From positions 558,001 to 622,000 of the forward strand of contig ML978132.1 in assembly GCA_010015805.1 (NCBI GenBank): a DNA stretch of 64,000 nt. The letters run 5' to 3'. The notes under the pieces were generated by a model, which had not been told where the DNA came from, did not search any database, and was given only the letters and a program-made list of their open reading frames with translations. The translations under genes and the position numbers were made by a program. Each line of letters opens with the position of its first letter. Within the stretch, counting starts at the first letter, position 1. This DNA comes from Rhizodiscina lignyota (Eukaryota). Below are positions 30,397-42,173 of this stretch, piece by piece.

Positions 30397-31698
30397 TCAC
30401 CCAGGTAGTGGTTGTATCCTTTCTCCTGCTCTTTCAACTTCTTCTTTTTGCTCCTCAGCTGAGCAGCAGAGTTCATTCGCGGAATCACTCGATTCTCCGG
30501 CCGCTTCAATGTCGTCAAGTTTTCCAGTGTCATCGAACGACCCTCTTCGTGTACCGATTCTAGATATTTGGGTATCCCTAAACAGGCTTCCAAGGTCATT
30601 CCTCAGCCAGTCTGGGCTCGTAAACTTTTTCCTCCACCCTACTCCCTCGCCGCCCATCTTCAACCCTGCCCCAATTGGGACAGAAGAATTACGAGCCGCA
30701 TCAGGACCTTGTAGACCAAAATCAGATGGTCTTCGAACCGATGGTGTGTCATCCGAGTCATCTCTGTGCCTGAATTTTTCCAGTAATCCGGGCATGTTGC
30801 GTGAAATCAAGCCACGGAGATCGGGCAGGCTCGCGGCAATTAATCCGAGGGCGAGCTCAATTTCAATGAAGAGTGAGACCTCGGAACCAAACCAGCTTTG
30901 GCCGTTCGGTCGATGGCGATAGTTCATGATAATGAATGGGATCTGGAGCAATGCGAAAATGCAGGCAACACTGCCGATGCCGAATACAAAGACCAGCCCA
31001 AGTCGTTGATCGAGGCGCAGACGTCTCAAACCCCACACGTATGGTATTGGAGTTACTACATGATATTAGCTTCAACTATATTTCTTGATTCAGAACACAC
31101 AGGATTTTTACGGACAATAGATCATGCCATCGATTGCCGCGTCGACAATGGCTCCAGAGTAGGTAAATCCGTAGGCGTCGCTGCAGCTTGGATTGTCATA
31201 GTGCTCGATATGGCCACGGTAAAGGTCCCCGATGTCATTGCAATAGACGCCTAGTTCGATGCAGAGCTGCGCGCATTGCAGAAAGCTCAGCACGAGCACA
31301 GCCCAACTCGTTGCACGTAACCGTCGAAGAGCTGTCGGGAATAATCTCAGGTAGTACGTGAGGACACCAGCGCGGATGAAGAAGGCGGCCAGAGCATAGA
31401 ATAGTCGACGCTCAAAGTAGCGCAGATAATAAGGAATCTGGTAGTTCGCTTGAGGGCCATGTCTTGAAGCCCATCCTGATTCACTCGACAGACCTGCGAT
31501 CACAGTACGCGCGATTGAGAGGGCGAGTCCAAGAACGATGCACACGTCGTCGACGGCCAAGTGCTTGTGCAGAGTTATTCGAGCATAGAGTCGTAAGCCT
31601 ACCGAGGCAGTTGCGATTGTGATTAGTATCGTCGGTATGGTGATCACGACGACGGAGGGACTTCTCCAGTGGCCATCCGGAAACAGCTCTTCAGTCAT
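30397..31698 (-). CDS. PTH11-like / fungal rhodopsin-domain integral membrane protein
   Basis: VGLRLYAR, DDVCI, YYLRLF, LVFVFGIG and IELALGLIAASLP motifs; intron ~31050-31110. Confidence 0.85.
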
Positions 31699-32750
31699 GA
31701 TCGTTGGCAACGAGAATCATCCCATGGCGTTTGAGGATATTAAGCCGACGTTGATGGGTTATTTTTATACGTCTCTTCCGAGAAATGCGACCAGTTTGGG
31801 GGCGGACGATACGTCAACGAACGCGAATGCCGCAACGGCTGGAGAGCTAACACATGATGGAGCAAAACAGAAGCAGACCGTCGAGACAGAACATTGAAGG
31901 AGAGGATGGAGTTTTTAAAAATCAATACAGTGAGCAGAAATGGGTGGTGAGCCCCCTCTTTGGTGGCTTGGAAGCCGGTTCCTCTCCGCATTTCCGCCGC
32001 CAAGACTGTGCCGTGCTGACACACCGCTGTTCGCAACGTTCCATCTCCCCGGCTGGGCAGTTGCGTAGCATTTTCGTATTGCGACTGGACGGGGGCAGAA
32101 AGGCCTTGAAGAAAGTGCGTCACTTCCAATGCATCGAGCGTCTTGTTTGGGAGAAAAGTGGGAAGCAGTGGTTGTTTGAGGCGCATCCCGGTCGTCGAGC
32201 GTCTCCCGAATTAGCCTTCATTCAGGGTCAGCCGCACGGGTACATAGCTTAGTTGCTGTTGCGCAGGGACCCGGAGTCTCTTCCACCTGAATGACGAGTC
32301 TTTACTTAAGACCCTTGATGGGCCGATGGAAGAATTCAGGGCCGTATTTCCACATTATGGCCCGGTACGACGTCATTCAGCGCTCTTCCACGAGCATCTT
32401 CTCGCGCGAGTGCGCTGCTCTGCTGCGCTAGAGTTAAGAATGTCAGATACGCCAATGAAGCACTAAAGCCTACCCCGACCGGTAAGAATTGCGCAAATGA
32501 GTAGAATTACGCCAGTCTCTTTGCTGATTCACTCAAGCTGCCAAGCTGCAAGCAAGCTGCCCCAAAGTGGCAAGCGCAGCGTGACACCAAACACCACAAT
32601 GTGCACCTGCCAAGGCTGCCCCGGCCACGACCCAAACGGGAAGGGGCTTTCCAGTTGACACTTCCATTGACAATCAACCTCAACTTCAACTCTCTTTGAT
32701 CATATGGTTCATACCTACAGAACATCGCGTTTACATTCGCTCTCAGAACG

Positions 32751-33836: not shown

Positions 33837-35588
33837 GGGAGGAGGGAGGTTGCAGAGCATTGGTTCACAAGAGGGGTCGGAAAATTGAAGTCGCAATTGC
33901 TCTCTCGGCCCCGAATATATCAATACCTCGCTCGCTCGTCAGTCGAAGTCTACTTGAACACCATTCACTTGATTTGCATATCGCGCTCTATCCGTGTTGG
34001 TGGGCGCTGAGTCTGAACGCCCATCGTGTGATACGTATCCTCGGTGAGCAACAAAGGGGAACTAATGCGGCGCCCAGTAATTATCAAACTTTCTTTGATT
34101 TGATGCCTGGCCTGGCTGGTCCAGATGCTAATAATGCGAGACCCTTGGCTGCTCCCTACAAAATAATGCCATCCGCTGAATGTCTAGCGGCACAACGCCA
34201 ACGCGCAAACGCCATGTCTTTTTCCGTTGCAGGAATAGGACCATTACGATCCATGCGTGTCTAAACAGTCTCCAAATGTATGAATACAAGAATCGTTTCG
34301 AACAGCTCAACCAATGCTCTGCGATCGCAGGACCGCTCTTGCGGCCAGCGGCCAGCCGAACAATCCAGTTACCATGGCCACGTATCTGGAAGAAGAAAGT
34401 CAGTCTCATGCGTTACAAATTCTGACTGACGATTCTTACAGCGCTGATGTCCTCCCAAGGCGAGCGAGAACTGGAGTGATTGGATGATCATGCGGCCTCA
34501 GTGATACTGGGTATTTGCCCATTGGGTGTGGCTCTCTGAGGAGATTGCGTGCGGCAGAGGCGAAGGTGCGCAGGAATGTTGTGCTTGCTGGCATGGTGTC
34601 GAATAGTCTTCGAAATAGTAGTCTATAGAGATGGTTCGAACGTGGAGTGTCTTTTGGTTGCGTGGTAAGGCTTAGTTGTGTCCAATCAGATCGCCGATCG
34701 AAATGCGTGTGGTAATGAGGACTTTAAGAATAGTAGATTTGATAGGGCAGCTGTGGTCTATGTATTGAGAGGAGCAATGAACTCTTTGCTTTGTGAATCT
34801 GTGATGATGTAGAGGAAATCCATATACTTCATCCTTATGCGGCGTCTTTATAACTTTCTGCCCTATTCCATCATACAGTGGTACGAGTATGGTGGAGTGA
34901 CAATAAGACAATTACGGAAAATCAGATTACAGCATTCTCAGCCAATATTTCCATCGGTTCCGCTGCCTTTTCGCGCTGACGTGCTGGTTCGTGGTGACTG
35001 TGGGCTGTTTTCCATGCGATGGTGCGGGCCGCAGTTGACTGATCGTGGTGTGACCATTGTACCACAGACTCCCGACGCGACTCCCGAGAGCCTCATTTCG
35101 GCGAGCTGCGACGTTGCAAGCAGGCGAGAAGCGCATCCTTTGGAATGCTATCTGTTGCTTAGGCGACTATCAATTGCAAGTTTAGGTAGAGAAGAACATG
35201 GAGGCGATTCCGGGGCAGCCGCGTGATGGGCGCCCGCTTGCTGGGTGCAGAGAGATGCCTCAGGCCGGGCTTCTCTTAGCAAGACGCTTACAGAGCAGCC
35301 ATCGAGAGCGCTGCGTGCTCTCGCTGTGCTTTCAGTGCTCGAGGACTGTGGAATCATGAGAAACTGCAACTGCAAAATCAGTGCCAAAATAGAATTAAAT
35401 TGCGCTGTGCGTGACCGTGTGAGAAAGCCCGAAAGCTAAGGATCGCGTGGGCATAAGATGGAGCCCGTTGAGGCCAAGGGTGAGCGGGAAAAGCGTTGAA
35501 TCGGATCCAGTTTTCTTGCTTTATATAGCGTAAACGGACTGCCCTACCTCAACAGTTCAAAGACTGCGCTCTGCCTCAGCGGAGTACA

Positions 35589-35713
35589 TCCTCCGTAGTC
35601 TGTAAGCTGCCCCGATTCGGTTAGCTTCTCTTCAACTTCTCACACATATCACAGAGTGGTTATGATCGCCGCTTGTCACGCGGCTGGCCCGGGTTCGATT
35701 CCCGGCGGGGGAG
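35589..35713 (+). tRNA. tRNA-Asp(GTC) interrupted by a 53-nt spliceosomal-type intron (35602-35654) between positions 13 and 14
   Basis: Exon 1 TCCTCCGTAGTCT + exon 2 AGTGGTTATGATCGCCGCTTGTCACGCGGCTGGCCCGGGTTCGATTCCCGGCGGGGGAG give a 72-nt canonical cloverleaf with G10-U25 and G73; the insert is GTAAGC...CTCAC...CACAG. Confidence 0.85.
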
Positions 35714-35726
35714 AAAATCCACTATC

Positions 35727-35741
35727 TTTTTTTGTCTTTTT
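35727..35741 (+). terminator. Pol III-type oligo-T terminator after tRNA-Asp
   Basis: T7 and T5 runs 14-28 nt after the discriminator base. Confidence 0.7.
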
Positions 35742-36554
35742 GGACAGTATTTCTTTTTGTTCCTTAGGAAAAGTAGTTTGACAGAAGTGGAGGTGTACAT
35801 ACACGTTGTACGTTGTATAGAAGCAATGAAACAAGTGAAAGCTACTTAACTACTTCCTTTTTAATACTAGCTACGAGTGATAACCACTCTGTAATGTGTG
35901 AGAAGTTGAAGAGAAGCTAACCGAATCGGGGCAGCGTACAGACTACGGAGGATGTACTCCGCTGAGGCAGAGCGCAGTCTTTGTTGAGGGCCAGAACCAA
36001 TTGAGAGCGAGACACGTCTCGCTCTCAATTAGCGGACGCTTGAATGCTTTGCTGGGCAGTGTCTGTGGAGGCTGTCTCGCGCTGGCTAAGTACATCCACT
36101 CTACGGCGGAGTGTAATGGGATGGAGGGTTTTGAGGCAATGTCCGTCGCATAGCGATTTTTCGTATACTTGATGGCCTTCCCATGCTCGTCAGCTTTGCA
36201 CTTTTCTGCCGCGATGTGCTTCGCTTCGCAAAGCTGGCAGACTCGATTTCGGACGAGCGAGATCGCTGTGGTACGTAGGTCTCGTACCGAGCACAAACGA
36301 ACCGTCATTCAAGCATGCTGAACACATTATCAGAACATGTCCTGGACCACCCTTGGATGGATCCGCTACGCGACAGAATCTTTTGGCCATAGGGTTTGAC
36401 CGGGCAAGAAGCTTCGCCGACTGTTGGCCTGTCCCCGTCTTCAGCTTCAGCTAACCACTGCTCTGCGAAATTGCGGATGACTCCTTTGTGTTCTGTGGCA
36501 CAATCAGGTACCTTTGGATTCCAAGGCAACACTTTTGTCGTGGATTGTTTCCAA

Positions 36555-36930: not shown

Positions 36931-36979
36931 GAGCTGGCTGCTGTGACACAGCTTTTCTGAGGCCGCGAGCCGTAGCTCC

Positions 36980-37282
36980 AGTGGGCTTCTCAGTCCTATG
37001 CAGCATCGTGGCTACAGGCAGAGGCTTCTCAGTCCCATGAGCGTCGGGGCTGCAGGCAGAGGTTTTTGCTCCGTCCCATGCAGCCTCGGGGCTGAGGGAA
37101 GATGGTAGTTCATCTCAATCCCATGCAGCCTCGGGGCTGAGGGCAGAGGGCAGTTCATCTCACTTCCATGCAGCTTCGGGGCATGCTGGCAGAGGCTTTC
37201 ATCTCAGTTCCACGCAGCTTCGGGGCATGCTGGCAGAGGTTTCTTCTCAGTCCCATGCAGCGGCGGGCTGCTGCTGGCAGAG
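36980..37282. repeat. GC-rich minisatellite, ~7 units of 38-46 bp
   Basis: Consensus GGCAGAGG..TTC(A)TCTCAGTCCCATGCAGC(C/T)TCGGGGC repeated in tandem. Confidence 0.9.
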
Positions 37283-38164: not shown

Positions 38165-39304
38165 TCATATCTTCCTCTTCTTACTCGCACCATTTGTCCC
38201 CGACTCCGCGCTCGCGCCATTGGATACTTTAATATGAGACCGACACTTCATCAACGGTTGGATCTTTGTCCCAAACTTGTCCAGGCCCTCCAACCAGTCG
38301 TCAAAAGTCAACATGATACCCCTCGTTGCCGGCACAGTGGAAGCCTCATCCAACATCGCCGCAACCTTCTCGAAAGAGCCACACAACGTCCCCATGTTCA
38401 TGTTGACAGAGCTTTCAGGAAGCTTCACCATTGATCGCCAGGTTGCATTCTTATCGGCCTTTGTGTCTTTGCCTCCTTGGTCTGCGATCCATGACACTGC
38501 ATCGACATCGATGCCTTCCTTGTAGTGGTTCCACTTTTCCTCCGCGGCCTCGTCCGTCTCCTCTGCAATGATCATAAAGAGCACATACGCGCTAACATCC
38601 CTTCCGGTTTTCTTCACTACCTCTTCAAGCCGTGTGTTCTGCTCTGTTGCGGCCAATGGAGTATTGTAGCCATGGCCCATGACGAAGTTGTAGTCCACCA
38701 TCTTCGCTGCAAACTCCATACCACCGGCGGACTGGCCTGCGGCGACGATCTTGATATCTGAAGAGGGCTTGGGAGACAGTTTGCAGTCTTCCATGGTGAA
38801 ATGCTTCCCCTTCAGATTTGATACACCATCCTCCCATAGATCTTTCATCACCTGGACATACTCCGTCGCGTATTCGTAGCGGTAGCCGAAATATTTGTTT
38901 CCTGGCCACATGCCCATCTGAGTGTATTCGGCCGGCTGCCATCCAGTGACGATATTAATTCCAAAGCGTCCAGGTGCAACGGAGTCGATGGTCGTGGCCA
39001 TACGCGCAACAAGTGCAGGCGGGAGCGTGAGAATAGCGGTTGAGGCGAACAGTTTGATCTTACTCGTCACAGCAGCGAGTGCGGCCATGAGCGTAAAAGA
39101 TTCGAGATTGTGATTCCAGAACTCCGTTTCGCCGCCAAAGCCTCTGAGCTTGATCATGGAAAGAGCGAAATCAAAGCCATAATGCTCGGCTTTCTGAGTG
39201 ATCTGCTTGTTCAATTCGAACGACGGCTTGTATTGCGGTGAGTTCTTCGATATGAGCCAGCCATTGTTCCCTATGGGAATGAAAACTCCAATGTCCACTG
39301 CCAT
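38165..39304 (-). CDS. rutA: pyrimidine monooxygenase RutA (luciferase-like flavin monooxygenase), intronless
   Basis: [52 protein letters not shown] and VNMNMGTL match enterobacterial RutA as I recall it along the whole length. Confidence 0.93.
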
Positions 39305-39343
39305 GGTAGAAATGAGTATTTCTATATAACGACTTTCCGCAAA

Positions 39344-42024: not shown

Positions 42025-42097
42025 AGCTCGTTAGTTTAGTTGGTTAAAACACTTGGCCCATGACCGAGATCCCGGAGTTCAAATCTTCGACGAGCTA
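42025..42097 (+). tRNA. atypical tRNA with CAT anticodon (Met-like; C33, G37, A1-U72)
   Basis: AGCTCGT/ACGAGCT acceptor, GTTT/AAAC D-stem, CTTGG-CCCATGA-CCGAG anticodon arm, CGGAG-TTCAAAT-CTTCG T-arm. Confidence 0.8.
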
Positions 42098-42102
42098 TCT
42101 AC

Positions 42103-42173
42103 GCCTCGTTAGTTTAATGGTAAAACACTGTGCTGATAACGCAGAGCTCGGCGTTCGATTCGCCGACGAGGTA
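42103..42173 (+). tRNA. tRNA with GAT anticodon (Ile-GAT), unusual for a eukaryotic nuclear gene
   Basis: GCCTCGT/ACGAGGT acceptor, GTTT/AAAC D-stem, CTGTG-CTGATAA-CGCAG anticodon arm, CGGCG-TTCGATT-CGCCG T-arm; T-runs at 42177-42190. Confidence 0.9.

Follow-up and report, generated by a model that had tools for sequence, protein, structure and literature searches.

Introns in tRNA genes constitute the textbook case of protein-only splicing, a reaction carried out by an endonuclease and a ligase. In the literature, this endonuclease/ligase splicing of tRNA introns is contrasted with the spliceosome (excerpt of PMC10275265), and ectopic tRNA introns lying outside the anticodon loop, including in the D arm, are described from nucleomorphs and from Cyanidioschyzon merolae (excerpts of PMC4090602 and PMC3728597). 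Spliceosomal introns, for their part, occur in fungal U6 (Pol III), U2, U5, U1 and rRNA genes (excerpt of PMC5855946), as well as in the U3 snoRNA gene (excerpt of PMC5832005); the statement of a first-pass annotation of the locus studied here, that such introns are known in fungal U6, U3 and rRNA genes, agrees with these sources, the former covering U6 and rRNA and the latter U3. The introns of snRNA genes have been related to the closeness of these RNAs to the spliceosome active site (excerpt of PMC5855946). In full-text literature searches, whose coverage leaves out most subscription journals, no report of a tRNA gene with a spliceosomal intron was retrieved, and the only phrase match was "non-spliceosomal tRNA introns".

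In this work, we analyzed a stretch of 64,000 nt (hereafter the window) of contig ML978132.1 of Rhizodiscina lignyota, corresponding to positions 558,001-622,000 of the forward strand; all coordinates given below are window positions. The window contains a tRNA-Asp gene interrupted in its D arm by an insert with the appearance of an mRNA intron. On balance, the reading that we favour is that of a working nuclear tRNA-Asp(GUC) gene with an mRNA-type (U2-type GT-AG) intron at position 13/14, which the spliceosome would remove as it does in fungal U6; it would thus be the first tRNA found that appears to need the spliceosome.

Anatomy and surroundings of the split tRNA-Asp gene

The features of the locus, together with the one protein gene used for comparison, are collected in Table 1.

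Table 1. Window coordinates of the split tRNA-Asp gene, its signals and neighbouring features
Feature	Position	Strand	Description
Fungal-rhodopsin-domain gene	30400-31716	-	60-nt intron 31115-31056; 5' site GTCCGT, branch GCTAAT, TAG
TATATA	35522-35527	+	-67 to -62 relative to the mature 5' end; candidate upstream promoter element
5' leader	35558-35588	+	duplicated along with exon 1 and the intron
Exon 1	35589-35601	+	13 nt; tRNA positions 1-13: acceptor 5' strand, U8, A9, D-stem 5' strand
Insert (putative mRNA-type intron)	35602-35654	+	53 nt, GTAAGC...CACAG
5' splice site GTAAGC (putative)	35602-35607	+	from sequence
Hairpin of the insert	35604-35627	+	from fold prediction
Branch-like CTCAC	35639-35643	+	A35642, 12 nt before the insert end
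3' CAG	35652-35654	+	from sequence
Exon 2	35655-35713	+	59 nt; tRNA positions 14-73, from the D loop through the GTC anticodon arm and the T arm to the 3' acceptor strand and the discriminator G
B box GGTTCGATTCC	35692-35702	+	intact, in exon 2
T7 and T5 runs	35727-35741 (T7, 35727-35733)	+	Pol III-type terminator, 14 nt past the discriminator
Inverted truncated copy	35880-35983	-	leader, exon 1, 51-nt intron and the initial 9 nt of exon 2, followed by unrelated sequence
Perfect palindrome	35999-36030	.	15-nt arms, 2-nt loop, just beyond the inverted copy

When the two exons were joined by script, slicing the letters of the window, ARAGORN called a 72-nt tRNA-Asp(gtc). This bears out, in coordinates and letters, the first-pass claim that excision of 35602-35654 yields such a tRNA. 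In the ARAGORN structure the acceptor stem is paired at 7/7 positions (one of them G-U), the anticodon and T stems have 5 bp each, and the anticodon loop is the 7-nt TTGTCAC; the D stem consists of 3 pairs plus one U13-U22 non-pair. The accompanying claim that all canonical features are present was therefore right for the acceptor, anticodon and T stems but too generous for the D stem. The residues expected of a cloverleaf (U8, A14, G18 G19, U33 and T54-C56) are in place, and the ARAGORN drawing also displays G73, the GUC anticodon (G34 U35 C36), C38 and G10-U25, which together we take to be the yeast Asp identity set. The match between the two halves exceeds what chance would provide, since a 13-mer able to complete the cloverleaf (7/7 pairing with the acceptor 3' strand, U8, R9 and at least 3/4 pairs with the D-stem 3' strand) occurs at just 11 of 127,974 window positions, two of these 11 being real copies. 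Furthermore, the splice register is unique, a shift of one base altering the joined product.

The unspliced gene is poorly handled by standard tools, as had been anticipated in the first-pass annotation. ARAGORN forced a poor 76-nt call on the unspliced DNA (35638-35713, with two acceptor mismatches), and the Rfam tRNA model gave no match to the unspliced gene at its gathering score, reaching with loose thresholds 21.7 bits (cut-off 29) over 35656-35706, model positions 7-64. As genes of this kind are missed or mis-called, fungal tRNA gene sets may be incomplete.

Regarding transcription signals, the B box and a T run are present, with no run of at least four T between 35540 and 35726, and the insert divides the A box, which places normal Pol III start-site selection in doubt. 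A guide to the start site is offered by the tandem tRNA gene at 42025, which carries TTATATT at -38..-32; if the same spacing rule holds for TATATA at the split gene, the leader of the Asp precursor would be of ~35 nt. In both the MFE and the centroid folds of 35555-35730, leader positions 35561-35568 are predicted to pair with 35594-35601 (8 bp), reaching the 5' splice site, the z-score of the overall fold (-1.35) being not significant. This helix, as modelled, may present or mask the 5' splice site, and the inverted duplicate begins 3 nt before it.

The tandem arrangement at 42025-42173 (+ strand) merits a description of its own. It comprises two well-formed tRNA genes (Rfam, 53 and 63 bits) in head-to-tail orientation, separated by 5 nt, with nearly alike 5' halves, the anticodons CAT and GAT according to ARAGORN, a C33 in the first gene, and T runs after the pair. 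A GAT (Ile) anticodon is not usual for nuclear eukaryotic Ile tRNA. From their sequences, these genes would seem to be transcribed together, as a pair whose identity is unusual.

The first reading of the locus recorded the split gene and missed a second, inverted copy 166 nt downstream, which is 97% identical (103/106) to 35558-35663, including 31 nt of leader. All three differences fall inside its insert, a number too small for significance: GTACGC at the 5' site, and two 1-nt deletions close to the 3' end. Because this copy runs into unrelated sequence it cannot make a tRNA, and it is a dead fragment. As the insert is contained in it, the rearrangement postdates the insert; the sequences therefore suggest that the locus was rearranged recently, with the insert already in place. 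The palindrome just beyond the inverted copy is a possible trace of the same event. A further 27-nt piece at 35200-35226 (- strand), with 81% likeness to exon 2 between anticodon and T loop, was rejected as a relative, its 11-nt exact seed being about what chance gives in 3 kb; the statistics being borderline, it may represent a chance match or else the remnant of an old tRNA.

A look-up of the stretch in public runs returned 24 rows, one of which (X1) shares 0.91 of the words of the stretch, the other 23 sharing 0.04-0.06; the contigs of X1 and of three of the 23 small-share runs (X2, X3 and X7) were aligned to the locus at 80% likeness. The X1 contigs amount to 34 Mb in total at ~150-fold depth, and break exactly at the borders of the inverted repeat because the inverted copy is present. 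In X1, exon 2 lies within one unbroken piece (35618-35893) with a depth of 142, compared with 153 and 156 in the flanks. No other X1 contig matched the tRNA body, a hint rather than a count given that some records may have been filtered out; X2 and X3, in contrast, yielded matching pieces down to 37 nt in length at 84-89% likeness. No paralogue with this tRNA body was thus seen in the X1 contigs, which we take as a hint.

Intron-like signals and related inserts

The insert has the termini of an mRNA intron, and its final 30 nt are 70% pyrimidine. According to our own arithmetic, a random insert would present GTAAG and YAG exactly at the tRNA break in ~3 of 100,000 cases. As a measure of the mRNA introns of the window, the pattern GTAAGY...CTRAY...YAG was matched 9 times (8 distinct sites of 40-64 nt), against 1.73 matches expected from shuffles. 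The 53-nt insert falls inside this length span, shares its GTAAGC 5' site with one of the 8 distinct sites, and places its branch-like A 12 nt from the 3' end, the window matches ranging between 8 and 21 nt (own count). The branch-like CTCAC, however, matches CTRAY in 4 of 5 letters, and the pattern with CTYAY, the class to which CTCAC belongs, is not enriched in the window (4 matches vs 2.23 expected). The first-pass claim that size and signals match the mRNA introns of the window is thus upheld for length and for the GT-AG ends, but not for CTCAC, which lies outside the enriched CTRAY; judged by the window alone, the insert is weakest at its branch site. Also counted against the spliceosomal reading are the exon bases at the 5' splice site (CT/GT vs the usual AG/GT), the location of this site within a predicted hairpin, and the rearranged DNA and dead partial copy next to the gene.

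The window is fungal DNA whose introns are short. How strictly real introns of this genome follow the consensus can be judged from the Fungal-rhodopsin-domain gene, in which position 155 of the Pfam profile ends one ORF and position 155 resumes in the next, supporting an intron between them. The 5' site of this intron is GTCCGT (Table 1), from which it follows that real introns of the genome can deviate from consensus. It was placed by joining ORFs de novo, an approach that yielded 1,221 candidates (too noisy) and then 316 junctions, of which 19, with both ORFs of at least 130 codons, were inspected by eye and used solely to place this Pfam-supported 60-nt intron. A Pfam search of 15 ORFs around the split tRNA detected no family in any of the 10 that lie at 33.8-38.0 kb, and there is thus no sign of a protein gene hosting the tRNA. 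Downstream of the split tRNA, in a region devoid of recognisable genes, positions 36966-37267 are occupied by degenerate direct repeats with a unit of 44-45 nt, which fall into families D1-D3 (60-93% alike). Beyond them, at 38165-39343 (- strand), lies an intron-less ORF of 392 codons with a domain of the luciferase-like monooxygenase type (Pfam E 1e-45). The Atlas clusters closest to it are without exception bacterial RutA pyrimidine monooxygenases, although the window is fungal; this alone is no sign of gene transfer.

Sequences related to the split gene were found in the contigs of the three small-share runs, each of which contains exon 2 with 1 mismatch in 59. Their inserts were compared by hand with that of the window, starting from the 30 letters upstream of exon 2. 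In X3, exon 2 is part of a 323-nt contig and is followed after 6 nt by a T5 run; upstream of exon 2, sequence of unrelated appearance is followed by ...ACTTCTAACA TCCCAAT AG, where ACTTCTAACA is identical in 9 of 10 letters to ACTTCTCACA, found at the matching place in the window, and the distance from the branch A to the insert end is 11 nt vs 12 nt in the window. In X7, a soil metatranscriptome, exon 2 is found in a 170-nt contig and is preceded by CAACTT TG CTAAC CTAAAACAG, with an ungapped identity of 15/22 to the last 22 letters of the window insert. Two extra letters (CT) stand there between CAG and exon 2, so that the position of the insert in X7 may differ by 2 nt (further 5', 11/12 vs 13/14). 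Only the unspliced form is seen in X7, and DNA can occur in an RNA library. Its contig extends 103 nt before and 8 nt after exon 2, and its size is that expected of the precursor, a coincidence worth noting which we keep outside the evidence. Finally, a 151-nt contig of X2 displays exon 2 directly after ...TAGTCT, that is, the intron-less form, with 30 upstream letters available.

Judging from these alignments, the insert is probably homologous in at least three sources, and the CTCAC of the window sits where its relatives in X3 and X7 carry the consensus CTAAC. Conservation of GT, branch and AG in orthologous inserts had been proposed as a check on the intron; within the 30 letters upstream of exon 2, the span in view, the branch motif and the AG are kept in both of the relatives with an insert (2/2, X3 and X7). 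The exon has been kept at 58/59 letters while the insert drifted with branch and AG retained, which points to a selected gene in which the intron signals matter; from its sequence, this pattern does not look like that of a decaying copy. No spliced junction or lariat was seen among the aligned contigs of X1, X2, X3 and X7, of which X1, the sole run with the full locus, is not recorded as RNA; this absence says nothing on the transcription of the locus. No related tRNA emerged from wider searches: metagenome contigs gave 0 stretches for the pattern with a non-T base before exon 2, and viral contigs and prokaryote genome contigs gave 0 stretches each. The three metagenome stretches matching a 20-nt anticodon-arm pattern (L001-L003) were rejected, since each of them appears to be a fortuitous match within GC-rich DNA that does not encode a tRNA.

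Other classes of intron and element were considered as well. Folds of the gene, of the insert and of a putative 176-nt precursor predicted no bulge-helix-bulge (BHB) at either junction, both junctions lying in open or unrelated regions of the folds (z-scores of -1.0 to -1.8), and no pairing between the anticodon and the insert was predicted. An intron of the endonuclease type (Sen/BHB) is made improbable by these folds and by the location of the insert at 13/14 instead of 37/38. A group I or group II intron was discarded, as the catalytic core of these elements takes hundreds of nt, compared with 53 nt here, and no Rfam intron family matched in a search of 35450-36050 with E up to 10. With respect to mobile elements, the ends of the insert (GTAAGCTG... 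and ...ATCACAG) show neither a terminal inverted repeat nor a target duplication, leading us to reject a transposon or MITE footprint, and, apart from the local inverted duplicate, the insert recurs nowhere in the 64 kb. The possibility raised in the first-pass annotation, that of a transposon footprint in a dead copy, accordingly found no transposon ends and no target duplication at the insert in its favour.

Alternative explanations for the insert

The alternative that survives best is that of a dead or dying tRNA-Asp copy, which would have received the insert by an insertion event (e.g., reverse splicing and recombination), would be neither spliced nor used, and would leave the supply of tRNA-Asp to intron-less genes elsewhere. 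We regard it as rather unlikely, even though several of the observations above fit it: the off-consensus branch motif, with a CTYAY pattern that is not enriched; the split A box; the rearranged locus with its truncated inverted copy 166 nt downstream; the occurrence of an intron-less form of the same tRNA body in the run of another organism (X2); and the lack of spliced RNA among the contigs of the aligned runs. Against it stand two flawless exons and the comparison with the relatives, in which the tRNA body differs by 1/59 in two sources and the diverged insert nevertheless keeps CTAAC and AG, a conservation that would be unexpected in a dead copy unless gene conversion mends the exons only. 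Furthermore, no paralogue with this body was matched from X1, the body residing there in an unbroken piece with single-copy depth.

A second alternative keeps the gene alive and has the insert removed by proteins only: the endonuclease and ligase of tRNA splicing would work at an ectopic position, in the manner known from Cyanidioschyzon or nucleomorphs, and the GT-AG ends would arise by coincidence. Endonuclease and ligase are the normal route of tRNA splicing, and spliceosome-free ectopic introns in the D arm are indeed reported from nucleomorphs and a red alga (excerpt of PMC4090602), the reported ectopic introns being, however, of 3-24 nt in the same source, compared with 53 nt here. We consider this explanation improbable, given that neither the fold of the gene nor that of the precursor places the junctions in a BHB, that the coincidence of GTAAG and YAG at the break would be as rare as estimated above (~3 in 100,000, own arithmetic), and that two relatives retain a suitably spaced branch motif. 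Least credible of all, and in our view very improbable, is that the insert is retained and that transcription starts inside it, giving a 5'-variant tRNA-like RNA (35638-35713) which uses the 3' end of the insert as acceptor strand: the 76-nt ARAGORN fold on unspliced DNA and the partly A box-like TCACAGAGTGG at the insert/exon 2 border (relative to what we presume to be the A box consensus) speak for it, but 2 of 7 positions of the substitute acceptor stem are non-pairs, its D stem has three pairs only, and the complementary exon 1, a 13-mer of a kind present at 11 of 127,974 positions, would be left unexplained.

Taken together, the proposal that this tRNA is matured by the spliceosome draws on the split tRNA, the ends and size of the insert, the lack of a BHB and of transposon ends, and the relatives, with the off-consensus branch in the window weighing against it, and it is the best-supported interpretation of the locus.

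A candidate maturation route and its relation to known systems

For a gene spliced in this manner, the following route can be proposed. With the A box split, Pol III would rely on the intact B box and possibly also on the TATATA upstream, producing a precursor of ~170 nt that would start ~35 nt upstream of exon 1 and end at the T7 run. The spliceosome would then recognise GUAAGC, the branch region ACUUCUCAC (A35642) and CAG, and would ligate the two exons, after which the tRNA would be completed by RNase P, RNase Z and CCA addition. A bolder version, which we put forward tentatively as a possibility, is that in one filamentous-fungal lineage the sole tRNA-Asp(GUC) gene carries an mRNA-type intron in the D arm, that Asp decoding there depends on the spliceosome, and that pairing between leader and exon 1 presents the 5' splice site.

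If the spliceosomal reading is true, tRNA joins the short list of ncRNAs with mRNA-type introns, and a third splicing route for eukaryotic tRNAs would exist that standard tRNA finders overlook. The capacity of the cell to translate one amino acid would then be coupled to its capacity for splicing, and the locus would provide a natural test of the spliceosome on an uncapped, highly structured Pol III transcript.

Among the systems described, the canonical tRNA introns at 37/38, handled by the Sen endonuclease and tRNA ligase, share with this locus an insert in a nuclear tRNA that needs removal before function (excerpts of PMC10275265 and PMC4090602), but differ from it in that the insert studied here lies at 13/14, has GT-AG ends and a branch-like motif, and is predicted to form neither a BHB nor a pairing with the anticodon. 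The ectopic introns come closer in location; those of Guillardia, however, are of 3-24 nt and linked to BHB-like motifs (excerpt of PMC4090602), whereas here 53 nt with spliceosomal signals and no BHB are found. The nearest parallel is offered by the introns of fungal ncRNA genes, in which, as here, a short insert with 5' splice site, branch site (here branch-like) and 3' AG interrupts the gene of a structured, abundant ncRNA, its presence varies among lineages, and its sequence is otherwise poorly conserved; moreover, the U6 host is a Pol III transcript. In contrast to these cases, the host in R. lignyota is a tRNA, which is not among the hosts given in the excerpts of PMC5855946 and PMC5832005, and the insert interrupts the D arm along with the A box of the internal promoter. 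Proximity to the spliceosome active site, the argument advanced for the introns of snRNAs (excerpt of PMC5855946), is inapplicable to a tRNA, and a spliceosomal intron in this gene, if true, would for that reason bear on how introns are gained.
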